A DNA stretch of 64,000 nt from Obrimoposthia wandeli. Lineage: Eukaryota. Position 1 is the first letter of the stretch. The number at the start of each line of letters is the position of its first letter. Positions 882-64,000 of this stretch are shown in pieces. Both the position numbers and the translations under genes were made by a program. The notes beneath the pieces were generated by a model that worked only from the letters and a program-made list of their open reading frames with translations, was not told the DNA's origin and searched no databases. The stretch lies in NCBI GenBank assembly GCA_977020255.1, contig CDROCS010000275.1:248001-312000 (forward strand). The letters are read 5' to 3'.

Positions 882-894
882 AGCTACAACAACA

Positions 895-1305
895 GTGCCC
901 AGCTATCAATACCAAAGATTGCTAGCACTAGGCTTGTTAAGTTGTCTAATGCCGATAACGGGAGCACAGGAGATAGGCTCCAACCACGGAAATAGTTCCT
1001 GGTTCAAAGAAATCAACAACTACATCATACAGTACAATACACCGACACTGATGATGCTATTAGTGTTGATAGGAATAATTGATGTTTGGCTTATCCGAAA
1101 ATGTTTCCGATCTATGAGAACCGATGGAAAAAGATTCCAGTTTGTAAAAATGAAAAGACCAAACGGACCAACAAACCAAGTACTTATGTATCTAGACGAA
1201 AGGATTGAGGATAACATAGTGGATGAAGCGATATATTATCCACAAAACAGACTACTGAATAAATTCCGAATGGATTATGAAGCTGACCGAAAAACGCACA
1301 CTTGA
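895..1305 (+). CDS. Small type-I membrane protein of unknown function
   Basis: Hydrophobic N-terminus LLALGLLSCLMPITGA, TM segment LMMLLVLIGIIDVWLI followed by basic RK; tightly packed between neighbours; start codon uncertain. Confidence 0.5.
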   Translation: MPSYQYQRLLALGLLSCLMPITGAQEIGSNHGNSSWFKEINNYIIQYNTPTLMMLLVLIGIIDVWLIRKCFRSMRTDGKRFQFVKMKRPNGPTNQVLMYLDERIEDNIVDEAIYYPQNRLLNKFRMDYEADRKTHT

Positions 1306-3243: not shown

Positions 3244-3638
3244 AGGGAACGATTCCACTAGATCCCAAATATCATCTCCAATCCCAAATAATAATACCTG
3301 TTAGACCAAAAACAAAATATCCAAATCCGCGAGTTATTAGAAAGTCGGACATAATACACGGAAACCGATCAACATCAATGGAGACGCCATTCAAACCGAC
3401 AAACAACAAAATGAAATACGATTACCAATCCTCAGACAGTGGAATAACAGCAGTCAATGCTTTAATTGGAATGGCAGTAGTGTCAACAGCGATAGTTCTA
3501 TTGACAGTCGTGTGCGTGAAAGGCAGTCAGATATGCCCAAGAATACGACGGAAATGCAAAAAACTGCGATGCTGTAACACACCCACAATGGAGGAAGTGG
3601 AATTGCGGCCCTTACCTCCGCCTCCCATCAAGACATGA
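3240..3638 (+). CDS. Small membrane protein with Cys/Pro-rich tail
   Basis: GTGA overlap with the previous stop; TM AVNALIGMAVVSTAIVLLTVVCV; tail CCNTPTMEEVELRPLPPPP. Confidence 0.55.
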   Translation: MKGTIPLDPKYHLQSQIIIPVRPKTKYPNPRVIRKSDIIHGNRSTSMETPFKPTNNKMKYDYQSSDSGITAVNALIGMAVVSTAIVLLTVVCVKGSQICPRIRRKCKKLRCCNTPTMEEVELRPLPPPPIKT

Positions 3639-8769: not shown

Positions 8770-9362
8770 TAAAGATATTTTGGTAAAGTAATCAGTCTTT
8801 GCGTATAAAGATAAAGGAATTTGATATTTTGATAAAGAAATCAGTTTTGCGTATAAAGAAAATGGAATTTGATATTTTGATAAAATAATCAGTTTTGCGT
8901 ATAAAGATAAAGGAATTTGATATTTTGATAAAATAATCAGTTTTGCGTATAAAGATAAAGGAATTTGATATTTTGATAAAGTAATCAGTTTTTGCATATA
9001 AATATAAAAGAATTTGATATTTTGATAAAGTAATCAGTTTTTGCATATAAAGATAAAGAAATTTGATATTTTGATAAAGAAATCAGTTTTGCGTATAAAG
9101 AAAAATGAATTTGATATTTTGATAAAGTAATCAGTTTTGCGTATAAAGAAAAAGGAATTTGATATTTTGATAAAGTAATCAGTTTTGCGTATAAAGAAAA
9201 AGGAATTTGATATTTTGATAAAGTAATCAGTTTGGCGTATAAAGAAAAAGGAATTTGATATTTTGATAAGTAATCAGTTTTTGCGTATAAAGATAAAGGA
9301 ATTTGATATTTTGATAAAATAATCAGTTTTTGAGTATAAAGATAAAGGAATTTGATATTTTA
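8770..9362. repeat. 48-bp tandem repeat, about 12 copies
   Basis: Unit gcgtataaagataaaggaatttgatattttgataaagtaatcagtttt (47-49 bp). Confidence 0.95.
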
Positions 9363-11330: not shown

Positions 11331-11654
11331 CTAAAACCATCAAATACTGTTTCGAGATCATCGCCTTCAATCACAAAGTGTGTAAAATAATCAATGCTTA
11401 CCATCGCTACTGCAGCCACAAAACTAATTTTTTATGCCACTATAACATTGAAAAATAAAATATGCATTAATCTATAAAGTTTAAAATTTGTCATTTTTGT
11501 GTCGTCGTTTTACCATACCATCTCACACCTGACAACTAGAAACTCTATAAGCATTAGATTCTGTGACTAAGGTCATTCTGAGATTTTCTAATGTGGAGAT
11601 TCCGAATATAATATCCATATGACCATTTTGTTTTACTAAAGTGGCATATACATG

Positions 11655-12991
11655 AGTAGGTAGAAGGATGGAGTCTAGATCACTTGACCCCCCCTGTGTG
11701 CGCACACCAAGTTAAAGGGTGGTGTGCGCACACCAAGTTAAAGGGTTTCACACCATAAGGGTGTCTTGCCACACCATAAGGGTATATGTTGCCTCACCAT
11801 AAGGGTGTCTTGCCACATCATAAGGGTCTGGCTCAGAAAGGTTATGAAGGTTTGAAGGTATGGTCGTGACGGTCTATGGTCGGCCAACATACCCAAGGGG
11901 TTGTGGTCGTCCATAGGTCAAAGGGTCGGGGTCAGTTTTGACTTGAAGGTTTGAAGGTATGGTCGTGACCGCCTATGGTCGGTCAACATACCCAAGGGGT
12001 TGTGGTCGTCCATAAATCAAAGGGTCGGACTCAGTTTTGACTTGAAACTTTGAAGGTATAATTAAGGTCAACTATGGTCGGCCGTCACATCTAAAGGGTT
12101 GTGGTTGTCCATAGGTCAAAGGGTCAAGGTCAGTTTTGACTTGAAACTTTGAAGGTATAATTAAGGTCAACTATGGTTGGTCATCACATCTAAAGAGTTG
12201 TGGTCGTCCATAAATCAAATGGTCGGACTAAAAAAAAAAAAAAAAAAAATATCAAGGTTTTAGTACATGGTTGTAATCATCTTTAGAAGACGAAGTCACT
12301 CATAAAGTATTGTCGGTCATATATGAATGGGTCGGGATATAGACCAAATCAAGTTTTAAATGTCAAAGTTTGAATACATGGTTGTAATCATCTTTAGAAG
12401 ACGAATTCATCCATATAGGTATGGTCGTCCATAGATGAAGGGTTAAAAAAAACTTGGAATTTCATAGTTTCAAGTACATGGTTGTATTCGTCAACATATT
12501 ACGAGTTTATTCATGTAAAAATTTTATGGTCGTTCACAAGTTAAGGGTTAGATTTGGCATAAATTAAGAAATTATATAGTATTCAATCAATTATTCTATG
12601 TGAAAGTTCACTCTTAAAAGTTAAGGAATGTATTACGTAATCATACACACACTATTCTATGTGAAAATTTAAGCTAAAGTTCACTCTTATCAGTTAAGGA
12701 ATGTATTACGTAATCATACACACACTATTCTATGTGAAAATTTAGATCAAAGTTTTTTCCTAGGCTTACACATCTAAAGAAATATGGTAAAAATTATTTA
12801 AATAACATAAATTATATATTAAAATAAAATATCCTTAATAAATATATTTATATACAATTTACATAATCAATACATAGAGAAAAACATTTCAAATAAGCAC
12901 AATGTTTTCCGTGTTTTCTAAACGGACATCGAATAATTTTGGCATTTTCTTTAAATTTTTGAAACTTTTATTATAATTCACAATTCTCAAA
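11655..12991 (+). repeat. Left TIR of the Polinton (~1.3 kb, internally repetitive)
   Basis: Reverse complement of 23884-25157, apart from differences in repeat copy number. Confidence 0.9.
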
Positions 12992-13038
12992 ATAAATAAG
13001 AAAGAAGTCAGAGAATAATACAAAATTAAACACATTTA

Positions 13039-16000
13039 TTATGTAATTTCATAATGTCCATAAGCGCGGCTTCTATTTTTCTCGTTCCAATAGCGTTTGT
13101 CATCTGATGAGCTGAGAGCAGTCTTTTGTGTTATGATTGTGTATAGTTGATGATTTATTGTTCCAAACTTCTTTTGTGGTATAGTATATGCATTACCGTT
13201 TTCATACACGTCTAAATATGTTTGATGTACAACCGTTGATCCCTTAAGATTTACTCCTTTTGCTTTATTATTTTCAAAGTCATCTTCAAACTTAAGTGAA
13301 TAACATTTACAAAGTAAGAAAATCCATTCTTTATACATTCTTCCTTCCGATTCATCTTTAAATAAACCTATTTTACTATTAAATTTATTAGAATATAATG
13401 GATCATTCACATTATAATTTGACGTATCTAATAATCCATCTGCAATCATTTTTGGTAACAACTGTTTTCTTAAATTAACGTTTTTACATTCCAAAAAGAA
13501 TGAGTCGTTATCACCGGCAACTATATTAATTGAACAATTGAATAAATTACGATATATTTGCAAATCATGATACTGAAGAGTATACATTCGTAATTTGCTA
13601 AGGTCTAGTACAGCTTGGCCTATATAATTTGGTCGATCGAGACAAATAAAGTCTTTTCTTAATAAAACAGCTATTAAATTATCATGAATTTCAATTGTTC
13701 GTTGAAACATAGGTTTGCTAGTATATGTAATTAATTTTGTAGAACTAGTGCAGATGCGAAGATTCAACCGTTTCTTAACATTTTCAACGGTCTTTCCATA
13801 CAAACTAACATTTTTAAGTTTATAAAAATCTTTGTCACATTTATTCGTTGCTTGTGATCTCATTTCTGAATTATATTCTATATATTCTGCGAATATCTTA
13901 GCCTGAGAGAATTTTACTGCTCGAAGAATAATTGTTACCACTGCTCCTAAACTAACATACATCTGCAATAGTCTCCAATGAATAACATAATGACTTTTTG
14001 GCGAATGCGTCATTAAAAGTTTTTCAACTTTTTTACCAGGTGGACATTTCTTTTCTGGAGCTATAGGAAGATCATCTAAAAAGTCATGAAGGTTTTCTGG
14101 TATTACCAAGTCTACTTCCATAACATAATCATATTCAATATGTTCCATGTTCACATTTTTCATTTCATGCAATATTTCGTTTAATTTTATATCATCAAGA
14201 ATCCATTCAAAATCTCCTTTTGGTAAAGGTTGATCAAGAGCCCATCCATATAAATTATTAACATCTATATATAAAAGACTTGTTTCTTCATCAGCGACTA
14301 CATGATGCTTATTGACAAATGTCATTCCTCCTCGTATACCCGAAGAAATCATGTTGTACATTTCAGGATCCTGCATCAGTTCAACCTTATGTTTTAACAT
14401 TTTTAGAGCACTTGCCCAACTCAACCCAGGAATGCTAAAAAGGTTAAGTGGTTCTAAACCATCTTCACTGAGAGCTTTTCTTCTGAATGTTTGAAACACG
14501 TCAGCTAATAAATATATGTCAGTCTTTAAGTAAACTAACATATAATCCAACATATTTCTACAATTGGTTATTTTCCAAACATCTTGTGCTTTTTGATATT
14601 CAGTGTCTGTGATTTTATCATTCCATTTTACTGGTAAACTTAACTTATTCTGGAGGACATTTAATGATGTAGCAAAATCATATGGGAATATTCCTTTGCC
14701 ATCAATAAGTTTAGATGGAAAAACTGATCTTGTTAATGGAATAGTTGGTAATTTACCGGCTAAATTTTCCAAAGATGATTGCAAAAATTGCAAAGAATCT
14801 ATAAATCTCAGAGTTATTTTACCTAATCTTACAATCATGGCTTGAAACTTTTCTGTTGATTGTGGTATAATATTTATATCCCAGTCAGTAAATTTATTCA
14901 ATGCATGTTTTAAAATATGATGTAAATCATAACCTCTGAGATTATGAAACACAATAGGTAAAGTTGGACGAAGTTTTCTTGATAAATTACATTCATTGCA
15001 TGCAGGACCTAGATACTTGCCAGTAAAGTGATCATGATCTTTAACATATTTTTCAGATGATTCGTGACATAAATAACATTCATCGGCATTGCTAAATGTA
15101 TGAATCTCTGCATTTGTTAAGGGAATCATTACGTTTTTAAGAGCATCTAAATACCATGGCAAAACCTTTTCTTTAGCCAAGTTCTCTATTGACTGAAGAA
15201 ATTTAACTATGCAGTCATCACCAACATTATGTTGATACTGCGTTTCAATTTCATCTGTACTCATAAATAACATACCAGATGCGACAGGCATATGCTTTTG
15301 ATGATAACTCTCATCTGGTACTAATACAGATTCAAAATCAGCGTAAACGACATATTTCGGTGATATAGTTTTTGACCAATCGTTGAATTTTAACGTACTT
15401 ATTCTTAGGCATAGTATACATTGTAGTGCTTTCTTGATTATAGTCACATAAAACTTTATGCTTTTCTAATGACAAATCGGTTTTGAAACCATGTAAACAC
15501 TTTTCACACCATTTTCTACTAATTCTAGTCGTTCCAGTTCGAATATTTAATAACCGGTTAAGACAACTTATTCCTATATAATGAAACCGTTCCTTGGATT
15601 CTAGTAACAATAAATTAACTCTAGTTCCTTCCTTCATTTTTGATTTGTATGCAACATCGATATAAGGATTCTTGATAACATCAGTTTTTGATTCTTTTTC
15701 ACTTACCTCATTGAATATGAATACATTTATTATTATACCAGGGTTTTGCCTTTCAAATTTTGATATATTTGATATTTTCATTGGCATGTCTTCAGTATTA
15801 TATACAAAATCATTTAAAAATCTTTCATAGTTACTTGGTCTATTTCTATTTATTTCTATTTCATTATATTTAAGTATTGATAATATTGCATAAATAAAGC
15901 AAAGATTATCAGAGTTTTGAATATTTATGACTGCTTTAGATTTTGTAAGAGAATTTGGTGATTTAATATATGAATGACCTGACAATGCACAAATTTGACT

Positions 16001-16705
16001 ATATTTAGTAACAATAAATGCATATTCAAGTATATTCATCAATTTCCAACCACTACCTTTTTCTGAATATTCTTCAACTTTATTTTCCATTGTATCTTCC
16101 AATTCTGAAATTATAGCATGTGAAAAAATCATTGCTCGATGCGAAGCATACCATTCTTTAGTTTCTCCATCATTCTTTTCAAACCTCATTCTAATGATGT
16201 ATTGTATCTTTGCATTTCCCATTAATTGCACTATTCTTTCTAGTTCGTTTAATAATGAAACTGGAACCTTAAGACTTACAAGATTGAGATGATCTACTTT
16301 CATGGATATCATTGAATAACTATTTTCTAACGATGTTTTAGTCTGTATATTGTCATTTATTTTACGTTTTCGTGACGGAGTAGGAGCTGAAATTACTATG
16401 TTTGATGATTCATTAATTATATCAGTTCTTTTGCTTAAAGCCGGTACTTTAAATAATGTTTTCTTACTACCATTTTTATATTCTTTTAAATGACTAACAT
16501 GTCGACTATAAAATAAGTTGTAATCAACATTTTCAGTGCTTAAACATTGTGGACATATGAAATAATTTATCTTTTTGTATGAATAACCATAATAATTTTT
16601 CATGATATCATGACAGACTTGAGGATTAAAATGTGTTTCCAATGAACAATAATTTGAATAAGTTTTACATATACTCATCTGATGATATGATTGGTATTGA
16701 GACAT
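13039..16705 (-). pseudogene. polB: Protein-primed family B DNA polymerase, split by a +1 frameshift near 15380
   Basis: ORFs 15338-16780 and 13039-15447 join as MPKNKYVK|FNDWSKT if one A of an AAAA run is removed. Motifs: DNLCF...HY (vOTU-like terminal-protein region), YADFES, CYLC..DHDH..CNECN, FHNLRGYD, YIDVNNLYG, KLKNVSLYGK, GDNDS. Confidence 0.95.
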
Positions 16706-16758
16706 TGATTGATTTGATTGAACTTGAGATATTGATTGATTTGTATACTGAATAAAAA

Positions 16759-16777
16759 ATATATATATATATAAATA
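16759..16777. promoter_or_regulatory. (AT)n-TATAAATA tract in the short divergent polB / TBP-like intergenic region
   Basis: atatatatatatataaata between ATG 16705 (minus) and ATG 16803 (plus); function inferred. Confidence 0.4.
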
Positions 16778-16802
16778 CAATAATTTAATTATTTTACTTA
16801 CA

Positions 16803-17357
16803 ATGTTAACAAATATTAATTATGAAGGAATTTGCTTAGATGATGTATCCAAATTAAAATTTCGAACACGACCAGAACAATACGTTTATAAAGCCAAAGA
16901 TTATACAATACTTATTTTTAGAAATAAGAAATGCAGGATTATGGGATGTAAGGTACCTATTAAAAATATTTCTTACCCTTTAAGAATAAATATACTTGGT
17001 ATTCAATCAATTACGGTATGTGAAAATTTAGATCAAAGTATCAATCTATTTAAATTATGGAATGTGTTACGTAATACATGTTCATTTGACCCTGAGGTTT
17101 TCCCAGGCTTAAGATTAAATATTTTCAATCCATTGTGTGTAAATATTTTCACATCTGGAAAGGTCGTAATTTTAGGTCTTAGAAATTTAGATTTTCAAAA
17201 TCAAGTTAACGATATCATGACATACATTAAAAAAAATTATATAAATACGAAACAATTTCTAATTAAATCATTCAATTTTAAATGTCTTATAAAGCCGTTC
17301 AAAAGTATTACGAGTATGATATGTTCTTCTTGGCATCTGCATGGATTCATCCAATGA
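16803..17357 (+). CDS. TATA-binding protein (TBP)-like protein
   Basis: Two TBP repeats: TILIFRNKKCRIMGCK resembles TALIFSSGKMVCTGAK; IQSITVCENL...SFDPEVFPGL..VNIFTSGKVVILGLR resembles IQNMVGSCDV...SYEPELFPGL..LLIFVSGKVVLTGAK. Confidence 0.85.
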   Translation: MLTNINYEGICLDDVSKLKFRTRPEQYVYKAKDYTILIFRNKKCRIMGCKVPIKNISYPLRINILGIQSITVCENLDQSINLFKLWNVLRNTCSFDPEVFPGLRLNIFNPLCVNIFTSGKVVILGLRNLDFQNQVNDIMTYIKKNYINTKQFLIKSFNFKCLIKPFKSITSMICSSWHLHGFIQ

Positions 17358-17668
17358 CTATGCCAGTGACATTATCGAAAACTTCGTACAATTACCGAGT
17401 CTCTGATTTTGACGACAAAGACATTCAACAATTCAATGAAGTCGTCAAATATTTGAAAATTGACATTGAACTTGAGAATGAGGGTATATTTATGCGCGGA
17501 GATAAGTGCAAATTTTATGATTGTTCCGGAACAAAGATTTCGGATATTCAAGAAGATGGAAGAAGTTGGATGCTCGAAATAAAAATTCTCGGATATAAAA
17601 TAAATAAAAAGAATGAAACAACTCTCATCTGGAGGATTCATACAGCGGCCGAATATTTTGATGATTAA
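17282..17668 (+). CDS. Hypothetical protein, possibly OB-fold ssDNA-binding (start 17282 or 17354)
   Basis: Beta-rich 128-aa ORF ending IWRIH...EYFDD (acidic tail); ATGA overlap with the TBP-like stop at 17354-17357. The function is inference. Confidence 0.4.
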   Translation: MSYKAVQKYYEYDMFFLASAWIHPMTMPVTLSKTSYNYRVSDFDDKDIQQFNEVVKYLKIDIELENEGIFMRGDKCKFYDCSGTKISDIQEDGRSWMLEIKILGYKINKKNETTLIWRIHTAAEYFDD

Positions 17669-17749
17669 TAAATATTTAATAAAATGTTGTTATTGTTATA
17701 AACATGTACTTATTCTGATATATTTATTTTATATTAATATTTATATATA

Positions 17750-18368
17750 ATGTTATTAACAAACAATTCGACTTTTCAAGTAGTAGGACCAAGTGGTAGT
17801 GGAAAAACTTTATTTGTTTGTAAATTATTAAATTCAAAAATGTTTAAAAATAAATTTAATAAAATATATTGGCATCAAGGTGGTGACGGAGAAGCTGGTT
17901 TAACAAACCAAGAATTTAATAAAATAAAAAACATTAAGATTATTAACGGTTTTGATGAAAATTGGACGACAAGACTTGTAAAAGGTGATGTAATTGTTAT
18001 TGATGACTTATATCAAGAGGCTAACAAAGAATCTGATTTTAATGATTTATTTACAAAAATTGCAAGACATAGAGAAGTTACTGTAATTTTTATAACCCAA
18101 AATTTATTTCAATCATCGTACTCGTAATCTTAATGTACATTATTTGATTTTATTCAAAAATCCTAGAGATCAAACAGTGATAGATTTTATTACTCGTCAA
18201 GCATTTCCTCATAACAAGAGTTATTTAATTGATGCGTTTCATGATGCTACATCTTTACCTCATGGTTATTTATTTTTAAATTTTACTCAATCATGTCCTG
18301 ATGATTTAAGAATTGTTACTGATATATTTAACCGTAATGGTATTACAGTCTATAAACAAAATAAATAA
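17750..18368 (+). pseudogene. A32/FtsK-like genome packaging ATPase, frameshifted near 18112
   Basis: Walker A GPSGSGKT, Walker B VIVIDDL, RHREVTVIFITQNLF; continues in another frame as HRTRNLNVHYLILFKNPRD. Confidence 0.92.
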
Positions 18369-18388
18369 TAATAATGTTTTAAAATAAA

Positions 18389-18799
18389 ATGAATTTTAAA
18401 AAGAGTATTCTTAAACATAGTAAAAGGACAGATAAAGATGAAGTTAAAAAATTAATAAACACTGTATTATATGATCGTAATAATATTGAATTTTCAAAAA
18501 GTTTACCTTATTTTTAAACCTTAATTGACGTATCAAAAACGAATAAAATGAAAATGTTGAAATCATTTCCAATTTATGTAGTTGATGATTTAATAAAAAT
18601 TTTAAATAAAATAATTTATGGTAAAATTAAACCTGATCCTAATATTTTAAAATATAAAAATTCATTAATAAATTTAGCAAATTCACGTGGTAAAATTAAT
18701 AAAAGAAACATTATTTACAATCAAAATGGCGGATTCCTATTGGCCATACTGCCCGCTATAGCATCAGTAATAGCTGGTCTTATAACTTCAAGAAGTTAG
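18389..18799 (+). pseudogene. Basic core protein ending in an adenovirus pX-like GG|FL motif; in-frame TAA at 18515-18517
   Basis: ATG 18389 is in frame with ORF 18548-18799; C-terminus NQNGGFLLAILPAIASVIAGL. Confidence 0.7.
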
Positions 18800-18822
18800 A
18801 AGTTTAAAAAAAAATTATAAAA

Positions 18823-19130
18823 TTATATAAGAGTCTTACAAAGTAACATTAATAAGAAACTTACATTAAATGTTGAAGTAGATTCTCCCGATGTACCAGG
18901 AACCATTGTTGTTGATGCTGATGTAGAAATCATTACCGCGGCTGCTAGTCTAAAAACAATATTAAAATTAATTTAAAAAAGAAAAAAAAATACTTTTTAT
19001 GTTTCTTACTCTGCATATGAGCATCCATTGAATATTTATTATTCATTGGTCCTGTTTGACATATTTGGCAATTAAATCTAAATATAAATCATAATTAAAA
19101 AAAATATATATAATAAACTCACGTATTCAT
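18823..19130 (-). CDS. Spliced micro-gene encoding a U1/zf-met-type C2H2 zinc finger; not in the ORF track
   Basis: Exons 19130-19123, 19077-18994 and 18949-18823; GT-AG introns of 45 and 44 nt restore MNTFNCQICQTGPMNNKYSMDAHMQSKKHKKLAAAV... Confidence 0.7.
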
Positions 19131-19456
19131 TTTGAGTCTTGATTTATTTAAATTAAAGAAAATAACAAAATAGTAAATTATATTTAATTTAACATTTCAA
19201 TTTATAATAGATATCCTATTATGTAATTTCAATTATTGATAATAATATAATTATCTCAATTGCTACAATTGAATTGTGCCTATTTAATTAAGATAGTTGC
19301 CTTAATAACGAAAATTATAATAATATTAAATAATTACATTCTTTCGTTTTATACAAACATATAAACAGATTAAAATATATTTAACTTTTATAATAATGGG
19401 GATAAACAATACAAAGTTGTCTAACTTATTTATAAATTTTAATTCTTCATGCTGCA

Positions 19457-20482
19457 ATGGAAAAGATTTGGAACAATCCAGAAGATCCAGACGGGTATAC
19501 AGGGTTAGAAAAATTGACAAACAGAGTCAAACAATCAAAAACAAACACACAAAAATGGTTAAGAAATGAATTATCATATAGTTTGAATAAACCTTTAAGA
19601 CGTAAATTTCCTACTAGATCATATAAAACTAATGGTATTAATTCCTTATGGCAGATGGATTTAATGGAAATGATACCTTATTCTTCAGTAAATAACGGAT
19701 TCAAGTATATTTTAACTTGTATTGATGTATTTAGTCGTTTTGCAAGGGCAGTTGGTATTAAATCAAAATCGGGTATTGATTTATTACATGCAATAGAATC
19801 TTTAATTGTTGATGATGTACCAGTAAATATCCAAACCGATGAAGGTAAAGAATTTTTTAATTCACATGTTAAGAAATTATTTAAAACTGAAAATATCAAT
19901 CATTATTCAGTATATTCTCAATATAAAGCTGCAGTAGTTGAAAGATTTAATAGAACGTTAAGAGAACGGTTAAAGAAATATTTTACTAAACAAGGTAATA
20001 AGAAATGGGTGAATGTATTACCAAACATTATTTATGCTTATAATAATTCTAAACATAGAGGTTTAGATGGTTTAAAACCTGTAGATGTAAATAATAAAAA
20101 TGCATTTGAAATTTGGTTGAAACAAAATCCAAAAGAAAAGAAAGTTAAATCTAAATATAAAATTGATGATTATGTTCGAATATCAAAAATAAGTTCAAGT
20201 CCATTTATTAAAAATTTTAATCAAAATTGGAGTGATGAGGTTTTTCAAATTCATGATATTAATTATAAACAAAATCCAATAATGTATATTTTAAAAGATA
20301 TTGATAACGTCATCATCAAAGGAAAATTTTATAAACAAGAGTTACAATTAATTGATAAACCTAAACTATATCGAATACAAGAAATTTTAAAAACTAAAGG
20401 TCGTGGTAAGAATAAACAATATTACGTAAAGTGGCACGGATACTCTGAACCTTCTTGGATATTTGCTTCTCAAATTGAATAA
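19457..20482 (+). CDS. Retroviral-type DDE integrase with C-terminal chromodomain (intact ORF)
   Basis: WQMDL, IQTDEGKEF, AVVERFNRTL; C-terminal YYVKWHGYSEPSWI. Confidence 0.97.
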   Translation: MEKIWNNPEDPDGYTGLEKLTNRVKQSKTNTQKWLRNELSYSLNKPLRRKFPTRSYKTNGINSLWQMDLMEMIPYSSVNNGFKYILTCIDVFSRFARAVGIKSKSGIDLLHAIESLIVDDVPVNIQTDEGKEFFNSHVKKLFKTENINHYSVYSQYKAAVVERFNRTLRERLKKYFTKQGNKKWVNVLPNIIYAYNNSKHRGLDGLKPVDVNNKNAFEIWLKQNPKEKKVKSKYKIDDYVRISKISSSPFIKNFNQNWSDEVFQIHDINYKQNPIMYILKDIDNVIIKGKFYKQELQLIDKPKLYRIQEILKTKGRGKNKQYYVKWHGYSEPSWIFASQIE

Positions 20483-21494
20483 TGTCAAAATATATCATTT
20501 TACCTAGTTATAGTTGTCCAAGTACTCAACCTAACAATACAGCCAATCAATTTACTGTAGATTGGGAAAACTCTCTAAATTTAGATGGTGAATGGGAGGT
20601 TGCCTTGACTGAATTTGTATTTAATTATACTCCTTTAACAATACAAACTAATTCAAAAATACTTTATAAAACAGAAAAGATAGAAATGAAAACTTTCGAT
20701 GTATCTTTTGCAATTTTAAATGGATTAATTTTTAATAATTTAAATAATGTTTTCAATTTCAAAATTACAAAGGATCAAAAATTAGAAATAAGTACAATTA
20801 ACAGTATTCCTCGAATGTTGTTAAAATTCGAATCTTTAGAAGAATCAAAAATTATAGGTTTTAATGAAATACAAAAAATTGCTAGTCATGTTATAACAAG
20901 TGATGAAATTGTTGACATAAATAAAAATATTCATGCTAAAATGAGAATTACAATTTATTCTTTAGCTGAATATGAATACGAAATAAAATTTAATCAAAGT
21001 TATTTGATACAAGATAGTTCTTCATTATGTAATATTATAGCCAGTAAATGTAATGCGATTTTTAAAAGCTGTAATATAGATTCAAACGGATTATTTGATA
21101 TTTTAATAAATATAAATGTAAAATCAGTTTTATTTGACGAAAAACTTGCATCTTTATTAGGTTTAAATAATGTTTTCTTTGAGAAACGAATTAAAGGTTT
21201 TCAAGAACCAACACTTTCTAGCTCATATAATCAAATGTATATTTATACTAGTTTAACAGATTCTGTCTTAGTAGGATCTGATTATGTTCCACTGTTAAAG
21301 TCTATTTGGTTAAAATCATTAAAATATCGATATGGAGATGTAGTAAATGTTAAAATTGATAATCCAATGTACTTGAAAATAAGAGATTCAAGTATTAATA
21401 GAATCGAGGTAAATATACGTGATGATTCTGGTAATTTAATTCCATTTTCATATGGAGCAAAACTAGTTTAACTCTTCATTTACGTAAAGTATAA
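20482..21494 (+). pseudogene. Minor capsid protein (penton); terminal 1-nt frameshift near 21460
   Basis: NNTANQFTV...DGEWEVALTEF; MYIYTS...VPLLK; IEVNIRDDSG; the natural end TLHLRKV* is in a shifted frame. Confidence 0.85.
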
Positions 21495-21530
21495 ACAATA
21501 TAAATATATTTAAAATATAAAAATATAAAA

Positions 21531-21932
21531 ATGAATACATCAATTATAAAATTTTACAGCAAAAGTCAACAGGGCGGTGAACTTCCCTATTTCATTGGTA
21601 AGCAATATGGATCTGGTTGGTTTCAAACTATTTCTAGATTAGCTATTCCATTTATTAAAAAAGCTGGTTTATCAGCAGCTACAAGTGCTGCCAATGCAAT
21701 TGGCGAAACGGTAGGAACTGCGTTAACAAATCCAAAAAACTTAATTTCATCTCTCAAAGAAAATACAATCAAAGAAGTCAAAACTTTGATTCCAAAATTA
21801 AAAAATAATGCTGTTGAGAGTTTAAATAAAGTCGCAAATTGTGTTGAACAAAATGGAAAGGGTCTTAAACGTAAAAGAAATCATTTAAATAGTATAAACA
21901 AACGTCTTAAAGGTACTATATTCCAAAAATGA
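21531..21932 (+). CDS. Polinton small virion protein (pVI-like, amphipathic) with QxGG/QxGxG motifs
   Basis: QQGG, QYGSGWFQTISRLAIPFIKK and QNGKGLKRKR; lies between penton and MCP. Confidence 0.7.
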   Translation: MNTSIIKFYSKSQQGGELPYFIGKQYGSGWFQTISRLAIPFIKKAGLSAATSAANAIGETVGTALTNPKNLISSLKENTIKEVKTLIPKLKNNAVESLNKVANCVEQNGKGLKRKRNHLNSINKRLKGTIFQK

Positions 21933-23149
21933 CTAGTATAAAATCTGAATTGTGTATTTTCTATAGACCACTACCTCAAGTAGTGATTGAAAATTCAAGT
22001 TTTGAAGAAATATTTCCAATCAATTCAATTACTGGGGGAAATTTAAATGACATAGAATTTAATATTCATGCATCTGAATAAGATTATCTGGATTTGAATG
22101 ATACTTTGTTAAATATTAAATTAAAAGTTGTAAATGAAGATGGTACTGATTTAATGAAAGATAACGATGTAACTCCAGATAATTACATGTTTCAAACTTT
22201 GTTTAGAGATGTTATTCTAACACTTAATAATGTAAAGGTTGAAGGAGGAAATGGAACGTATACTCATAAGGCTATATTCGATACTCTTTTGAATTTTAGT
22301 AGTGATACCAAGTATACTAACCTTGAATGTTCCGGGTATGATGATGATGCAAAAAATCGTAAACAATGGATTAGTGAATCTAAAATATTTTCATTGTGTA
22401 ATTCAATTAGATTAGATTTCTTTGATCAACCAAAATATTTGATTCCAGGGATTAATGTTCATTTGAGATTTATGAGAAATCAGCATAATTTTTCGCTCTA
22501 TTCAGAAACTTCAAAACCAATTATTCAAATTCTAGATGCTAGATTGTATGTTAGAAGAGTAAAAGTTGATTCTTCAGTAATGATTGGACATCAGTTAGGT
22601 TTGCAAAGTCAGAATGCAGTTTACCCAATTAGAAAAACTCAGTTAGTAACATATTCAATTCCTCAGGGTTCTTTGGAACTTAATAAAGATCAAATATTCG
22701 GAGACTATCGTTTACCCAAGTTCATTTTGATTGCTTTCAAAGATACACCTCAGGGTGGTAAGGAATACAAAGTTAAATCTTCTACGTTCAATACATTTAA
22801 TGTTTCAACAATATCATTAGCTAGAAATACAGATTATCGAGAAACTTATAATCTAGATAATAACAATTTTTCATTAGCATATATGCAGTCAATTATTCGA
22901 AATATGAATATTTTAGATAAAAACTTGAATAATGGTATCAGATTTTCTGATTTTAAATCAAGAAGTTCGATTTTCACTTTTCTATTAGCACCAGATTTTG
23001 ATATAAACACTACTCAAGTGCCTAAAACTGGTAATTTAAGACTTGAAATTAGATTTAATTCTCCTTTGGTTGTTCCAACAAGTGTTTTGATTTACGGAAT
23101 ATTTGATTCCGAAATTCAGATTACGAAAAATAAAACTGTGATTGTATGA
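21929..23149 (+). pseudogene. Double jelly-roll major capsid protein with in-frame TAA at 22079-22081
   Basis: ATG 21929 MTSIKSELCIF...IEFNIHASE*DYLDLNDTLL is in frame with ORF 22094-23149; typical LRLEIRF..P C-terminus. Confidence 0.9.
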
Positions 23150-23522
23150 AGTAAGCTTATTGTATATTATATTCTTTATTTAAATTAGTACTTTAGAAAT
23201 TTATAAATCCGGAAAAATATTATTGAATAACAAATTTAATGGAGTATATTCATTGGATAAAATTCCATCATTAAAACCCGGAGGCTACATTATCAATACT
23301 CATACTTCAAATCTACCAGGCGAACATTGGATAGCAATATTCGTTGACAGATTCGAGATTCGAGTGTTTGATCCTTTTGGATTCTATTATCCTTCAAAGT
23401 TGGTGTCTACACTTGAAAAAGAAAACATTCCAGTCTACTATAATCGAGTTAAATTTCAGAATCCATTAACTAAAAACTGCAGACCTCTGAGTCTTTTATG
23501 GTTGAAACTTCAACACAAATAA
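23146..23522 (+). pseudogene. Adenain-family cysteine protease, N-terminus disrupted
   Basis: NTHTSNLPGEHWIA, VFDPFG, FQNPLTKNC (usual CG is CR here). Confidence 0.85.
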
Positions 23523-23574
23523 TTTTAAGTATAAACAAATATATCATTATAGTATTTCATTTTATTTTTTTCAA

Positions 23575-24028
23575 ATGGCTTTTTTTTGATTTAGAATGTT
23601 TTATTGATAATAATGGAGAATATATTCCAAAGGAATTATGTATAATGTATGTGAATGATATGACTTGTCCATTTCATTACGTGTTTAAAAATCAAATACT
23701 ATGGAGTAGTTTATCATTTACAGTTAAAAGAAAAAATCTATATTTGATAAATCATCATCATCAGTTATCCTGGTTTGAAGGTGAAAGCTCTGATATTCAT
23801 ATTGATGATGTTGAAACAATATTCTATGTTATGGATTCTATTGATGGAAAGAAAATTAATTTAGTGAAACGAATGTTTCCAAATTTGAGAATTGTGAATT
23901 ATAATAAAAGTTTCAAAAATTTAAAGAAAATGCCAAAAAATATTCGATGTCCGTTTAGAAAACACGGAAAACATTGTGCTTATTTGAAATGTTTTTCTCT
24001 ATGTATTGATTATGTAAATTGTATATAA
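23575..24028 (+). pseudogene. DnaQ/DEDD-like exonuclease-type accessory protein, probable +1 T frameshift after the start
   Basis: FFDLECF...PKEL and C-terminal CPFRKHGKHCAYLKC; removing one T of an 8-T run gives MAFFDLE from ATG 23575. Confidence 0.6.
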
Positions 24029-25157
24029 ATATATTTATTAAGGATATTTTATTTTAATATATAATTTATGTTATTTAAATAATTTTTACCATATTTCTTT
24101 AGATGTGTAAGCCTAGGAAAAAACTTTGATCTAAATTTTCACATAGAATAGTGTGTGTATGATTACGTAATACATTCCTTAACTGATAAGAGTGAACTTT
24201 AGCTTAAATTTTCACATAGAATAGTGTGTGTATGATTACGTAATACATTCCTTAACTTTTAAGAGTGAACTTTCACATAGAATAATTGATTGAATACTAT
24301 ATAATTTCTTAATTTATGCCAAATCTAACCCTTAACTTGTGAACGACCATAAAATTTTTACATGAATAAACTCGTAATATGTTGACGAATACAACCATGT
24401 ACTTGAAACTATGAAATTCCAACTTTTTTTTAACCCTTCATCTATGGACGACCATACCTATATGGATGAATTCGTCTTCTAAAGATGATTACAACCATGT
24501 ATTCAAACTTTGACATTTAAAACTTGATTTGGTCTATAGCTCGACCCTTTGATTTATGGACAGTCATACTTTATGGGTGACTTCGTCTTCTAAAGATGAT
24601 TACAACCATGTACTAAAACCTTGATATTTTAATTTTTTTTTTAGTCCTACCCTTTGACCTATGGACGACCACAACCCTTTAGATGTGATGACCAACCATA
24701 GTTGACCTTAATCATACCTTCAAAGTTTCAAGTCAAAACTGAGTCTGACCCTTTGATTTATGGACGACCACAACCCTTTAGATGTGACGGCCAACTATAG
24801 TTGACCTTAATTATACCTTCAAAGTTTCAAGTCAAAACTGACCTTGACCCTTTGAATTATGGACGACCATAGTGGTATACCAAAGAAGGGTGGAGACTAG
24901 ATCAATTGACCCTTCCGCCCTCCCCCCTTAAAACCTTCAAGTCAAAACTGACCTTGACCCTTTGACCTATGGACGACCACAACCCCTTGGGTATGTTGGT
25001 CGACCATAGACCGTCACGACCATACCTTCAAACCTTCATAACCTTTCTGAGCCAGACCCTTATGGTGTGGCAAGACACCCTTATGGTGTGACACCCTTTA
25101 ACTTGGTGTGCGCACACAGGGGGGTCAAGTGATCTAGACTCCATCCTTCTACCTACT
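23884..25157 (-). repeat. Right TIR of the Polinton
   Basis: Inverted copy of 11655-12991. Confidence 0.9.
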
Positions 25158-31106: not shown

Positions 31107-34100
31107 AGTAGGTAGAAGGATGGAGTCTAGATCACTTGACCCCCCCTGTGTGCGCACACCAAGTTAAAGGGTGTCACACCATAGAAATGTCACACCATAA
31201 GGTGTCACACCATAAGGGTATATGTTGCCTCACCATAAGGGTATATGTTGCCTCACCATAGAAATGTCACACCATGAAGGTATATGTTGACTCACCATAA
31301 GGGTGTCTTGCCACACCATAAGGGTCTGGCTCAGAAAGGTTAAGATAGAGAGGGAGGGGGGAAGGGTCAATTGATCTAGTCTCCACCCTTCTTTGGTATA
31401 CCACTATGGTCGTCCATAATTCAAAGGGTCAAGGTCAGTTTTGACTTGAAGGTTTTAAGGTATGGTCATGACCGTCTTTGGTTGGCCATCACATCTAAAG
31501 GGTTGTGGTCGTCCATAAATCAAAGGGTCAAGGTCAGTTTTGACTTGAAGGTTTTAAGGTATGGTCATGACCGTCTATGGTTGGCCATCACATCTAAAGG
31601 GTTGTGGTCGTCCATAAATCAAAGGGTCTAGGTCAGTTTTGACTTGAAACTTTGAAGGTATAATTAAGGTCAACTATGGTTGACCATCACATCTAAAGGA
31701 TTGTGGTCGTCCATAGGTCAAAGGGTCGGACTAAAAAAAAAAAATTAACGAATTCATCCATATAGGTATGGTCGTCCATAGATGAAGGGTTAAAAAAAAT
31801 TGGAATTTCATAGTTTCAAGTACATGGTTGTATTTGTCAACATATTACGAGTTTAATCATGTAAAAATTTTATGGTCGTTCACAAGTTAAGGGTCAGATT
31901 TGGAACAAACATGATAATTTTATTACATGGCGGTATTTGCATATGAAAATTGACTTCAAAGATACCCTTAAGGTCATGCAAACTTTAAGAGGTCCTTGTA
32001 AAAAATAAAAATACTTGTAATTTTCTAAAATAAAAATATTTTTTAAATTTAAATTTGTGCCAAATTATTTTGTTAGATTTTGTAAAGTTAAACAAATTTA
32101 ATTTATAGAATTTTTTAAAATATTAAAGTAACATTATTTAAAATAAATATTAGGGAAAATGTTAATAAACTCAAATTACTTTACTAACAGTATTATTATT
32201 ATTATTATTATTTTTTCATAAATATTTAAATTTACGCAAATTTTTATCCATTTTATTAATGTAATTAAACAATTCCTGGTCCTGGTGAAAAATAAAAAAT
32301 ACTTGTAATTTTCTAAAATAAAAATATTTTTAAATTTAAATTTGTGCCAAATTATTTTGTTAGATTTTGGTAAAGTTAAACAAATTTTAATTTAAGGGAT
32401 TTTTTAAGATATTAAAGTAACATTAATTAAAATAAATATTAAGAAAAAATGTTAATAAACTCAAATTACTTTACTAACAGTATTATTATTATTATTATTA
32501 TTATTTTTTTTTTTTCATAAATATTTAAATTTACGCAAATTTTTATCCATTTTATTAATGTAATTAAACAATTCTTTGCGGAAAAATTACTTGTAATTTT
32601 GTTTTTTCTTCAAAATAATAATAATTTAAATTTGCGCCAATTTAATTTATTAGATATTATTAAAGTTAAACAAATTTTAATTTAACAAGTTTTTTAATAT
32701 TAAAGTACCAACACATCTATCAATCAATTATTCTATGTGAAAGTTCACTCTTATCAGTTAAGGAATGTATTACGTAATCACACACACACTATCCTATGTG
32801 AAAATTTAGTACAAAGTTTTTCCCAGGCTTATGCATCTAAAGAATTATGGTAAAATTTCTTTAAATAACTTAAATTTCATGTCATACATACTTTGGAGTC
32901 CTGGAGAAAAATACTTGTAATTTTCTAAAATAATTTTATTTTTTTTTTAATTTAAATTTGTGCCAAATTTTTTATCGTTTCTTTGATTTAATTAAACAAA
33001 TTTGATTTTAAACATAATGTTAATTATAAAATAATTAATAATTTGATAAAAATTCATCTTACCACAAGTTATTCATCGAATCCATTGATGTATGTCCGTC
33101 AGCCTAATAGCATTATTCCATAATCTAACTGTAACTTTAGAAAAAAAAATAACAAATTTATTATATTAAAATTTAAAAATTGCGCGTTTTTTATTGTTTA
33201 CAATTAATGTATTAAAATAATGACGAAAATAGTTTCAAATACAAAGCAATTCATATTAATTATAACTAATTTATTAAAATAAACAAATTTACAAGTACTA
33301 TTTGATATTTTTAAAATATAAATAATTTATTTAAAAAAAAAGAATACTTCAAGTTCAAGTTAAATTTTGATAAATTCTAACATATTATTTTTAAATTACC
33401 GCCATTTATATATTATCCCTTTTGATGTATTTAAACAAATGTATATACAAACCTAATTATTATAACTCTAAGTTAAATATCTTAAATATTTATTAATTTT
33501 AAAATTGCATTATTTTATGATTGTAATTTATACCTAAAATAATGATGAATTTATTAAAAATATAATAATTACAAAGCAAATTAAAAAAAATTAAAAAAAA
33601 AATATATATATATATATATAAAGTAAAATCATTTGCTATTATTAATTTGTAATTTTCAAATTAATACTAGCAACCAATGAATAACATTAATAATATGTTT
33701 ACATTATATTAATTAATATGTAAATTTTCATGTGTGTGTTTTCTCTCACATAACTTTCACATGTTATAATGATCAATTAACACTCACATAAATAATTAAA
33801 ACATCCTTATAACATTCCTTAATTGATTTTTATTTAAACTGATAAAATTAACTTAATGTTATTCAAAGCTTACTAATTAAATAAATGTTTATTTAAATAA
33901 TTTGAGTATTAACATTATTCGATTTACACTATAAATATTCGAAAATATCTTTAACACATTAAAAAATAACTTCAATTTTTAAAATTTGTATCGAATATTG
34001 AAAATTCATTTGAAAACACATGTTTTTCGTCTATAAATTCGAATATAAAATCTTTAATTATATTGTTTTATATGTAAATAAATTAAAATATGTACATATT

Positions 34101-37100
34101 CGATTATGAATTAAGACTAATTGTATGAATTAATACAAGTGTAAATGTAAATAAAGGCAATTACAATTAACAATGAATGCAGTTACAAGTACAAGTAAGA
34201 AAGAATACGAATACAATTATGAATGAATATGAATGTAAAAACAAATGTACAAGTACATGAATGAATATTAGTAAAAATATCAATGCATTTGAGTTATAGT
34301 TTGAATAAAGGAGAGTTAGATTGAAAGTGAATGAATACAAGTATACATTCAAGTGAATGCAAATACGAGTAAGAGTTTCAGCAAGTAAATATAAAACTAT
34401 GAATGAGTGACAGTATAAGTGATTGAAAATAAGAGTGTCGATAGTTTGATTGAATGCGAGTGTAATTTATACTATAAGTAAATTAAAATAGAGTTTTCGT
34501 ATGAATAAAGTTATGTTAAGTTACAGTTAGATTAATAACAAGTAAGCAACTATAGGAAGCAGTGATATTGAAGTATGTTAAAAATTAGAACCACTAAGTT
34601 ATGGCAAGATTAATAAAAAACAACACCAAGTTTGAAGGTATGAATGAAAATTAGTAAAATATTTATGTATTTGAATGTAATTGAAAGATAGTTTGAATAA
34701 ATTACATTTAGATTGAATGTAAATGAATGCAAGTATGATTGAATGCTGTTACAAGTACAAGTAAGAAAGAATACGACTGCAAGTACGAATGTCAATTATG
34801 AATGAAAATTAGTAAATATATTAATGAATTTGAATAATTAAAATGTCTTATCTCGTTTGATAAAATTCCTTAATTGAAATATTTTAAAATAATTAGTTTA
34901 ATTTAAATTCTTTATTTTTAAATAACTCGATTATACAATTATATTCGTAAATATAATTGAAATTATCATTATTCGTTTCTCTTTTTAACTATTCGAAAAT
35001 ATATTTATATACAAATTTAGTAAATTAACTCAACAAACAATTTTATTTTTTAATTACTTGATATTTTTGCCATTGTCTTATTAATATAATATGAATATTC
35101 AATTTATTTCTTCAAAAATTCATTTTATATGTTAAATAATATTTTTTTACCACATTATTGTGGTTTTTATCAAGTGTTTTTATTTTTAAACTATAAAAAT
35201 ATTTTAATTATAAAGTTAGTAGCTGTATTCCGCCCACTGCATATAACATAAATTTCAAATATAAAGTACTATTAAATGTATTCTTTCAAATAGTAAATGT
35301 TTTTTCGAGTTATTTAATTTTGTTTACTAGACATTCGAAAATTGACTTGTAAACATAATATTATTTTGCATATATTCACTTTAATATGTTGTAAGTTATT
35401 ACTTTAATATAATCTACAACAAAAAACTTCAAATAATTTAATATTATGATTATTAAGTAAACTACTTGAAGTTTTTATATCAAATGATTTTACTTTATAT
35501 ATATATATATTTTTAATTTGCTTTGTAATTATTATATTTTTAATATATTCATCATTATTTTAGGCATAAATTACAATCATAAAATAATGCAATTTTAAAA
35601 TTAATAAATATTTAAGATATTTAACTTAGAGTTATAATAATTAGGTTTGTATATACATTTGTTTAAATACATCAAAAGGAATAATATAAAAATGGCGGTA
35701 ATTTAAAAATAATATGTTAAAATTTATCATTTTACAGACTTTTATTAAAATCTAAAGGGTTTAAAGCATAAATTGTAACAACAACAAAAGTACAAGTGAG
35801 TTAATATCTTGTAATATTCTATAATTTTTAACATTTGTATTTTAGTAGTTATTAATTGAACTTGAAGTATTCTTTTTTAAATAAATTATTTAAATTTTAA
35901 AAATATCAAATAGTACTTGTTAATATGAATTGCTTTGTATTTGAAACTATTTTCGTCATTGTTTTAATACATTAATTGTAAACAATAAAAAACGCGCAAT
36001 TTTTAAATTTTAATATAATAAATTTGTTATTTTTTTTTTCTAAAGTTACAGTTAGATTATGGAATAATGCTATTAGGCTGACGGACATACATCAATGGAT
36101 TCGATGAATAACTTGTGGTAAGATGAATTTTTATCAAATTATTAATTATTTTATAATTAACATTATGTTTAAAATCAAATTTGTTTAATTAAATCAAAGA
36201 AACGATAAAAAATTTGGCACAAATTTAAATTTTAAAAATATTTTTATTTTAGAAAATTACAAGGATTTTTCTCCAGGACTCCAAAGTATGTATGACATGA
36301 AATTTAAGTTATTTAAAGAAATTTTACCATAATTCTTTAGATGCATAAGCCTGGGAAAAATTTTGTACTAAATTTTCACGTAGAATAGTGTGTGTATTAT
36401 TACGTAATACATTCCTTAACTGATAAGAGTGAACTTTCACATAGAATAATTGATTGATAGATGTGTTGGTACTTTAATATTAAAAAACTTGTTAAATTAA
36501 AATTTGTTTAACTTTATTAATTTCTAACAAATTAAATTGGCGCAAATTTAAATTATTATTTTGAAGAAAACAAATTTACAAGTAATTTTTCCACCAGGAA
36601 TTGTTTAATTACATAAATAAAATGGATAAAAATTAGCGTAAATTTAAATATTTATGAAAAAATAATAATAATACTGTTAGTAAAGTAATTTGAGTTTATT
36701 AACATTTTTTCTTAATATTTATTTTAAATAATGTTACTTTAATATTTAAAAAAAAAAATGATATAAATTAAATTTGTTTAACTTTACCAAAATCTAACAA
36801 AATAATTTGGCACAAATTTAAATTTAAAAAAAATTTATTTTATTTTAAAAAAATTTTCAAGTATTTTTATTTTTTCACCAGGACCTCTTAAAGTATGAAT
36901 AACCTTAAGGGTATATTTGATCTAAATTTTCACATAGAATAGTATGTGTGTTAAAAACCACATTCCTTAACTGATAAGAGTGAACTTTAGCCTTGATTTT
37001 CACATAGAATAGTGTGTGTGTGATTACGTAACACATTCCTTAACTGATAATAGTGAACTTTCATATAGAATAATTGATTGAATACTATATAATTTTTTAA

Positions 37101-37852
37101 TTTATGCCAAATCTAACCCTTAACTTGTGAACGACCATAAAATTTTTACATGAATAAACTCGTAATATGTTGACAAATACAACTATGTACTTGAAACTAT
37201 GAAATTCCAACTTTTTTTAAACCCTTCATCTATGGACGACCATACATATATGGATGAATTCGTCTTCTAAAGATGATTACAACCATGTATTCAAAACTTG
37301 ACATTTAAAACTTGATTTGGTGTATAGCTCGACCCTTTGATTTATGGACAGTCATACTTTATGGGTGAATTCACCTTCAAAAGATGATTACAACCATGTA
37401 CTAAAACCTTGATATTTAAAAAAAAAAAAAAATTTAGCCCGACCCTTTGACCTATGGACGACCACAACCCTTTAGATGTGATGACCAACCATAGTTGACC
37501 TTAATTATACCTTCAAAGTTTCAAGTTAAAACTGAGTCTGACCCTTTGACCTATGGACGACCATAGTGGTATACCAAAGGGTGGAGACTAGATCAATTGA
37601 CCCTTCCCCCCTCTCCCCTATCTTAACCTTTCTGAGCCAGACCCTTATGGTGTGGCAAGACACCCTTATGGTGAGTCAACATATACCTTCATGGTGTGAC
37701 ATTTCTATGGTGAGGCAACATATACCCTTACGGTGTGACACCTTATGGTGTGACATTTCTATGGTGTGATACCCTTATGGTGTGACACCCTTTAACTTGG
37801 TGTGCGCACACAGGGGGGGTCAAGTGATCTAGACTCCATCCTTCTACCTACT
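31107..37852. mobile_element. Non-autonomous fold-back Polinton derivative, 6,746 bp
   Basis: Same AGTAGG...CCTACT ends; TSD TACGTG (31101-31106, 37853-37858); arms 31107-33635 and 35481-37852 are inverted repeats; no recognisable genes. Confidence 0.93.
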
Positions 37853-62689: not shown

Positions 62690-64000
62690 AGTAGGTAGAA
62701 GGATGGAGTCTAAGCCACTTGACCCCCCCCCGTGTGCGCACACCAAGTTAAAGGGTGTCACACCATAAGGGTGTCTTGCCACACCATAAGGGTGTCTTGC
62801 CACACCATAAGGGTCTGGCTCAGAAAGGTTAAGATAGGGGGGAGGGGGAAGGGTCAAGTGGCTTAGTCTCCAACCTTCTTTGGTATACCACTATGGTCGT
62901 CCATAATTCAAAGGGTCAAGGTCAGTTTTGACTTGAAGGTTTTAAGGTATGGTCATGATCGTCTATGGTTGGCCATCACATCTAAAGGGTTGTGGTCGTC
63001 CATAAATCAAAGGGTCAAGGTCAGTTTTGACTTGAAACTTTGAAGGTATAATTAAGGTCAACTATGGTCGGCCAACATACCCAAGGGGTTGTGGTCGTCC
63101 ATAATTCAAAGGGTCAAGGTCAGTTTTGACTTGAAACTTTGAAGGTATAATTAAGGTCAACTATGGTTGACCAACACATCTAAAGGGTCATGAACGTCCA
63201 TAGGTCAAAGGGTCGGACTAAAAAAAAAAAATTAAAATATCAAGGTTTTAGTACATGGTTGTAATCATCTTTAGAAGACGAAGTCACCCATAAAGTATGA
63301 CTGTCCATAAATCAAAGGGTTGGGATATAGACCAAATCAAGTTTTAAATGTCAAAGTTTGAATACATGGTTGTAATCATCTTTAGAAGACGAATTCATCC
63401 ATATAGGTATGGTCGTCCATAGATGAAGGGTTAAAAAAAGTTGGAATTTCATAGTTTCAAGTACATGGTTGTATTTGTCAACATATTACGAGTTTATTCA
63501 TGTAAAAATTTTATGGTCGTTCACAAGTTAAGGGTTAGATTTGGCATAAATTAAGAAATTATATAGTATTCAATCAATTATTCTATGTGAAAGTTCACTC
63601 TTAAAAGTTAAGGAATGTATTACGTAATCACACACACACTATTCTATGTGAAAATTTAGTCTAAAGTTCACTCTTATCAGTTAAGGAATGTGGTTTTTAA
63701 CACACACACTATTCTATGTGAAAATTTAGACTAAAATCACTCTTATCAGTTAAGGAATGTATTACGTAATCATACACACACTATTCTATGTGAAAATTTA
63801 GTACAAAGTTTTTTCCAGGCTTATGCATCTAAAGAAATATGGTAAAATTTATATTAAAATAAAAAATAAAATAAGAAAGAAGTCAGAGAATAATACAAAA
63901 TTAAACACATTTATTATGTAATTTCATAATATCATCTTCAAACTTAAGTGAATAACATTTAAAAAGTAAGAAAGTCCATTCTTTATACATTCTTTTCGTT
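62690..64000. mobile_element. Left end of a third copy of the same Polinton family (runs off the window), with internally deleted polB 3' end
   Basis: AGTAGGTAGAAGG start and TIR to ~63860. The sequence then matches 12992-13055 and jumps to 13280-13345. Confidence 0.92.

Follow-up and report, generated by a model that had tools for sequence, protein, structure and literature searches.

Fragments of an element's own TBP gene in the terminal inverted repeats of a Polinton, with a possible footprint of host silencing in the donor gene

Introduction

The inner units of the terminal inverted repeats (TIRs) in a Polinton/Maverick element, here called family A, resemble a TBP-like gene carried by the same element. 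The element lies in the window, the whole 64,000-nt stretch of DNA analysed here. The locus raises the question of whether this resemblance is real, in which direction the sequence moved, and whether the element keeps the copied sequence as a device or bears it as an accident. The original prediction held that the TIRs had taken up the gene fragments, and that these act as a cis element or as a source of antisense or hairpin RNA against TBP mRNA. In the accessible text of two adintovirus papers, Polintons/Mavericks and adintoviruses are described with pPolB, rve integrase, ATPase and inverted termini, and TBP-like genes are labelled in the figure legends (PMC8502044; bioRxiv 10.1101/697771); carrying a TBP gene is thus no novelty for elements of this kind. 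Unlike family A, TIRs made from a gene fragment go unmentioned in that text.

Organisation of the element

The features of the window are listed in Table 1. The family A Polinton is flanked by a 6-bp target-site duplication (TSD; 11649-11654 and 25158-25163), and its TIRs are long and start with AG, as those of Polintons do. Left and right TIRs are 93.6% identical (11795-12991 against 25088-23884). The 802-aa polymerase ORF has family-B motifs by eye, and Pfam gave Endonuclease_7 only. A Peptidase_C5 match falls below the cut-off (E=0.0039), and the presumed capsid ORFs have no Pfam match. Besides the genes in Table 1, the element has further ORFs. The 3' end of the right-terminal ORF is present at both ends of the window copy; its left copy at 12848-12991 is a second TIR extension, adjacent to the TBP-derived module and absent from most other left ends. 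The type-M foldback derivative is high-copy, and no TBP gene was found in two 8-kb type-M interiors.

Table 1. Coordinates of the features in the window
Feature	Position	Strand	Remarks
Polinton/Maverick element, family A	11655..25157	.	termini and TSD read directly from sequence
Left TIR	11655..12991	+	about 1.3 kb
Outer TIR array, 99-bp units	11874..12226	+	TRF period 99, 3.6 copies
Mid-TIR degenerate units	12250..12575	+	extra 7-11-nt words present at 17198-17353
TBP-derived module, left TIR	12579..12778	+	
3' end of right-terminal ORF (23884-24028) inside left TIR of window copy	12848..12991	-	
Putative protein-primed polymerase B gene	13039..16780	-	two frames, split near 15400
TBP-like gene	16803..17357	+	
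Donor stretch of TBP-like gene	16999..17156	+	
A32-type packaging ATPase	17750..18370	+	PF04665 1.4e-5, above cut-off; frame break near 18110
rve integrase, chromo-like C-terminus	19457..20482	+	PF00665 4.7e-10
Right-terminal ORF	23498..24028	+	
Right TIR	23884..25157	-	
TBP-derived module, right TIR	24098..24297	-	
Non-autonomous foldback derivative, type M	31107..37852	.	own 6-bp TSD
Modules in type-M derivative	32720-32845(+), 36333-36457(-), 36916-37085(-)		
Left end of another family A derivative	62690..64000	+	module at 63566-63830

The product of 16803-17357 belongs firmly to the TBP family and has the TBP saddle fold, as indicated by Pfam (PF00352, 5.3e-12), a PDB profile (3.4e-21) and a structure model (pLDDT 87.5; Foldseek matches to TBPs at 1.5e-9). 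The fold occupies residues about 1-146, most homologues are 145-160 aa long, and 17 homologues stand at 42-52% identity to the window gene. Throughout the 1.35-Gb genome, 1,768 copies of the family A TBP gene share a common 26-nt anchor. The coding sequence contains an imperfect 29-bp palindrome (17057-17085) with TTACGTAA at its centre, and this core is also present in the TBP gene of the sister lineage A'.

TBP gene sequence in the inner TIR

Three of the matches first proposed between TIR and gene are exact: 12579-12593 equals 16999-17013 (15/15), 12731-12753 equals 17017-17039 (23/23) and 32818-32831 equals 17098-17111 (14/14). The predicted cacatct continuation is found at 12769-12775 (17150-17156 in the gene). 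The remaining block, ggaatgt-ttacgtaat, matches 17059-17075 at 17/17 positions at 37023-37039(-) but with one mismatch in the window Polinton's own units. It was thought to recur in each ~73-bp unit, which is not so: the ACGTAA core is missing in 31/181 natural units. The further sites of these blocks proposed in the window are confirmed at 24123-24297(-), 32720-32831, 36346-36457(-), 36916-37085(-) and 63566-63801.

The module opens with block 16999-17013. Two 73-bp units that derive from 17017-17079 follow, and then a final, partial unit that continues into 17098-17111 and 17150-17156. The predicted colinear order therefore holds for the composite only: a short stretch is deleted from unit 1, the units duplicate one another in tandem, and the final one jumps from 17039 to 17098. 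That join shows about 2 nt of microhomology within a variable T run. There are 4,488 last-unit junctions, and 55 among the first 100 listed carry the 23/23 allele; a minority allele of the module matches the gene at 27/27 positions (16999-17025; 123 copies vs 2,415).

Chance likeness is a rival because TIR and gene are both AT-rich and many 11-13-nt matches occur over the window. At 58, the local TIR/gene score exceeds that of all 2000 dinucleotide shuffles (mean 24.8, highest 49), and element-interior windows without gene overlap score at most 32. The longest exact match between TIR and interior is 23 nt, against a maximum of 18 in 200 shuffles. The word score of the module is 64.6, and the highest of 1635 natural background windows is 29.6. 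The match thus survives the composition-matched shuffles suggested at the outset. Together with the 27/27 allele and the 72 end/gene pairings described below, these scores rule chance out, and we give it a negligible probability.

The signal is confined to part of the TIR. The outer 99-bp array does not match the TBP gene (score 22, z -0.6), and a TBP origin of its units is rejected. In the mid-TIR region, which was chosen after its matches were noticed, the word score is 25.6, reached by 0/1000 shuffles and 0/1635 natural windows; a sister-lineage region scores 7.2. The words shared with 17198-17353 are probably a real but weaker TBP-derived signal, and possibly represent a second or older capture.

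Direction and lineage of the capture

The gene is the donor, as first proposed. Over the donor stretch it aligns gap-free with the 17 homologues and encodes the conserved TBP motifs. In the TIR copy, by contrast, gaps break the frame, and parts are duplicated or deleted; the TIR-to-gene direction is rejected on these grounds. The genome holds four further TBP-carrying Polinton families, B-E, and the TBP of sister lineage A' is 61-70% identical to that of family A. Among 72 end/gene pairings, in which the family C and D ends were unconfirmed as paired TIRs, only family A TIR with family A gene scored above its shuffle maximum. Relatives had been proposed as a control, and the four other families indeed lack an end/gene match. 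Left ends of A', whose lack of the module may be old or due to recombination, show no signal against either TBP gene, nor does the module against three host TBP-like stretches. A general rule for TBP-carrying Polintons is rejected on the 72 pairings; judged from these sequences, the capture is a lineage-specific event. At the sites that distinguish A from A' in the matched blocks, the TIR agrees with A at 10/12, which places the capture after the A/A' split and before the present burst.

The families themselves differ in several respects. One genome contains at least five TBP-carrying Polinton families; the TBP gene of C, D and E has an apparent intron, and in D and E the polymerase lies at the opposite end. 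Family D ends carry long, near-perfect hairpin-like inverted repeats. AAGGTCA words, which we take to resemble nuclear-receptor half-sites, recur in the TIRs of families A (11874-12226), B and E, whose sequence is otherwise unrelated. There are also mosaic elements, whose left half (polymerase, often TBP and the next ORF) is about 75% identical to that of the window element and is fused to a right half at 95-98% identity.

Drift of the module in the TIRs

The module is present at about 4,500 element ends, compared with the 1,768 gene copies. Its carriers include non-autonomous foldbacks and a subfamily whose TIRs have another core repeat; this TIR type has up to five module units and is mostly paired with mismatched TBP alleles. 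Among 46 distinct long units, 21/32 gene-matching columns vary, versus 2/17 in the non-matching stretch (anchor columns excluded; columns not independent). Selection of the TIR for complementarity to the gene is rejected, as the gene-matching columns vary most.

The original prediction suggested a self-limiting antisense or hairpin role, and the TIR side gives no support to one that is maintained. The module alone forms no stable hairpin (folding z -0.68 and 0.30), so a hairpin is rejected. An AATAAA stands at the polymerase gene stop, ahead of the left module. Another lies 50-52 nt past the right-terminal ORF stop, just ahead of the module, in 11/11 other right ends examined, and is missing in the window copy. 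These early signals on both sides weaken the case for antisense sequence in mature 3' UTRs. Furthermore, 104 left ends lack the module. In all six such elements with both ends found, the module is on the right only, and five of the six have intact TSDs, indicating that one-ended elements have transposed.

The copied stretch could instead be a candidate protein-binding cis element, amplified in the TIR as an enhancer or terminal array, in which case the gene variants would adjust or abolish the site within the gene. A TTACGTAA or TGACGTAA site persists at least once in 108/109 natural arrays, many of which are near-identical relatives; the palindromic TTACGTAA site is presumably of bZIP type. 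The least variable part of the unit is the non-gene stretch, which contains a TIR-only word that we assume to be a GATA-like site, and units are retained and multiplied in type-M derivatives and in the other-core subfamily. On the other hand, the ACGTAA core is lost in the units noted above, ends without the module exist, and the TTACGTAA core is kept in all common gene alleles, with most variants outside it. We consider a cis element unlikely on these sequence comparisons.

Drift in the TIR copy, transposition of one-ended hybrids, and recruitment of the neighbouring ORF's 3' end are all as would be seen with a neutral module in a repeat-prone TIR. The last of these shows that family A TIRs extend readily. 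If the module is neutral, the variants in the donor gene would have another origin, namely weak constraint on the helix after the IQSI strand or selection on the protein, such as on its contacts with host transcription factors; their overlap with the copied stretch would be coincidental.

Common variants in the donor gene

Seventy gene copies were taken from the first 100 listed by an anchor outside the copied stretch. Eight common variants (at least 8 carriers) are found in 16803-17222, and seven of them lie inside the copied 81 nt of these 420 nt (17016, 17033, 17053, 17059, 17066, 17075 and 17076). Five of the seven alter residues and the other two are synonymous, while no common synonymous variant lies outside the zone. 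Along the gene, A and A' diverge evenly (21.9, 21.0 and 22.4%; 17/81 vs 75/339), and against this background the clustering gives Fisher p=1.5e-4, although p values are optimistic because the seven sites are linked. Singletons are also even (33, 17 and 30 over 196, 81 and 143 nt; 17 vs 63). Thus, the zone is no mutation hotspot.

In families C, D and E, which are module-free, only 16/58 shared variants lie in the same zone (p=0.002; 3-7 copies each, sampled differently from family A). The clustering has limits, however. In family E alone the fraction is 6/15. As many common variants as in the zone are found in 7.5% of 81-nt windows in 13039-17700, so the zone is not unique at element scale. 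It is also the least conserved part of the gene among homologues (0.53 vs 0.60 and 0.71), and four of the five residue-changing variants are in or beside helix 82-92 of the model, both consistent with a neutral module and weak constraint. However, residues 1-65 have 35/65 low-conservation columns and yet no common variant, and amino-acid divergence between A and A' is even (18/66, 7/27 and 13/47). Nor would weak constraint account for two synonymous variants inside the zone and zero outside, or for a share in the zone of 88% in family A and 28% in the module-free families. We regard a neutral module with coincidental overlap as rather unlikely.

The variants touch each of the 27-nt, 23-nt and 17-nt blocks and shorten the longest perfect TIR match from 23-27 to 16-17 nt. 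Specifically, 61 of 116 arrays have a match of at least 20 nt to the window allele, 33 to one-step alleles, and 2 to alleles changed at 17033. Private substitutions are scarcer in copies changed at 17033 (1.4 vs 2.7 per kb, p=0.007; 38 vs 30 copies, two dropped for missing sites). The mismatched gene copies therefore look younger, with the caveat that every new mutation leads away from a common state, and that a younger subfamily is expected to be more derived in any case. The loss of pairing is uneven. Predicted 30-nt duplex energies fall by only 0.4-6.7 kcal/mol and hardly change against some arrays; variant 17053 sits in a poorly matched part of the stretch, and at 17066 the commoner letter gives the better match to the TIR.

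Family A haplotypes nest for the most part, and when each site is polarised against A', more than one branch bears changes; thus a single patch is insufficient to explain the variants. Events at the DNA level might nevertheless be involved. The right-end module could pair with the gene in single-stranded replication intermediates and cause mis-repair or short conversion tracts, or a patch could come from an unsampled sister lineage. The family is mosaic, with A/A' hybrids, and four-gamete violations occur inside the zone. Moreover, one element has the same derived letter at 17033 in its own gene and TIR, possibly a single case of gene-to-TIR conversion, and one TIR carries another derived gene letter. 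Such single cases of letter sharing are, however, within chance, the derived gene letters differ from the common TIR letters, and zone singletons are not raised. No TIR-gene junction chimera was found at the 23-mer, searched as one exact pattern, which also disfavours a cost through DNA deletion. A DNA-level origin is, in our estimate, quite improbable.

Host silencing as the favoured explanation

We give a probability of about 0.4 to the reading that homology-guided host silencing targets the copied stretch via thousands of TIR copies, and that the clustered gene variants follow from it; its small-RNA step is inferred. Host silencing was among the roles first suggested for the captured sequence, and the gene-side clustering may lend it indirect support. 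The likeliest agent would be host small RNAs, since DNA junction products were not found and singletons are not raised. Against this reading, such RNAs could target any part of the 1,768-copy element even without the module. If the reading holds, the module would be an accident being escaped by the element, not a device kept.

The mechanism may be envisaged as follows. Template switching would put a TBP fragment at one end, and end-to-end copying would carry it to the other TIR, as in other TIR extensions. Transcripts of TIRs and foldback derivatives would feed small RNAs complementary to TBP mRNA. Thousands of module copies would make identity over the donor stretch costly, and alleles with a shorter match would express TBP better and found younger insertion waves. 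In its strongest form, the element would have seeded thousands of small-RNA templates against its own TBP, a self-inflicted immune epitope, and a 60-nt stretch would be mutating to escape with amino-acid changes as the price. This form is possible but doubtful.

In Mu killer-type hairpin silencers and piRNA traps, a rearranged transposon piece guides silencing of the intact element. Each of these consists of a long hairpin, or of an insertion into a cluster, at a single locus. By analogy, a rearranged piece would guide silencing of intact family A elements; unlike those systems, the family A blocks are 14-27 nt long and sit on element ends genome-wide, and the silencing role is putative.

If host silencing is the cause, family A would preserve, within a genome, a dated record of how a target site escapes silencing by small RNAs. 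Whether transposons escape by target-site mutation is normally difficult to test, since the guides span entire elements. In family A a single short gene stretch is present in about 2.5 times as many copies as the gene, natural alleles that differ in degree of mismatch run to hundreds of copies, and the genome itself shows how old they are relative to one another. A neutral module would still leave a Polinton TIR assembled from an internal gene that does not adjoin it, in coexisting one-ended and two-ended states.

Comparison with known elements

The accessible text on Galileo describes long, internally repetitive TIRs, lengthened both through expansion of tandem repeats and through uptake, at the two ends, of sequence from inside the element, and also cites expansion of Polinton inverted repeats (PMC3573991). 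Similarly, in family A the two ends carry duplicates of internal sequence in inverted orientation. As described there, Galileo recruits the spacer adjoining its TIR, whereas coding sequence serves as the donor in family A, at distances of 4.2 kb (left module) and 6.9 kb (right module), and only the terminal-ORF fragment adjoins the TIR. Family A also departs from that description in that the captured piece has been rearranged and turned into a repeat unit, and in the clustering of variants in its donor gene.

Pack-TIRs and Pack-MULEs, according to the accessible text of PMC8277862, capture gene fragments by template switching with 1-36-bp microhomology and a bias for nearby donors. They hold host sequence between TIRs, whereas family A holds its own gene inside the TIR. 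At eri-6/7 of C. elegans, Polinton TIRs are implicated in RNA-level pairing or rearrangement and their remnants serve host trans-splicing; self-gene capture as in family A is not described in the accessible text (PMC11414722).

Thus, TIR extension and gene-fragment capture are each known. Within the open-access literature, we found no report of a TIR repeat unit made from a fragment of the element's own non-adjacent gene, nor of escape or clustered change in the donor gene of such a TIR; as far as this search extends, that combination appears new.

Other features of the window

Outside the Polinton, the window contains a 48-bp tandem array of 12 copies at 8774-9361, and an innexin exon, which suggests an invertebrate as the host animal. 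Positions 51-3638 and the 10 kb upstream contain tightly packed ORFs, including a dual-specificity phosphatase (PF00782, 1e-34), which follow gag/pol/integrase-like ORFs recognised by eye. This region is probably a giant LTR retroelement with accessory genes.
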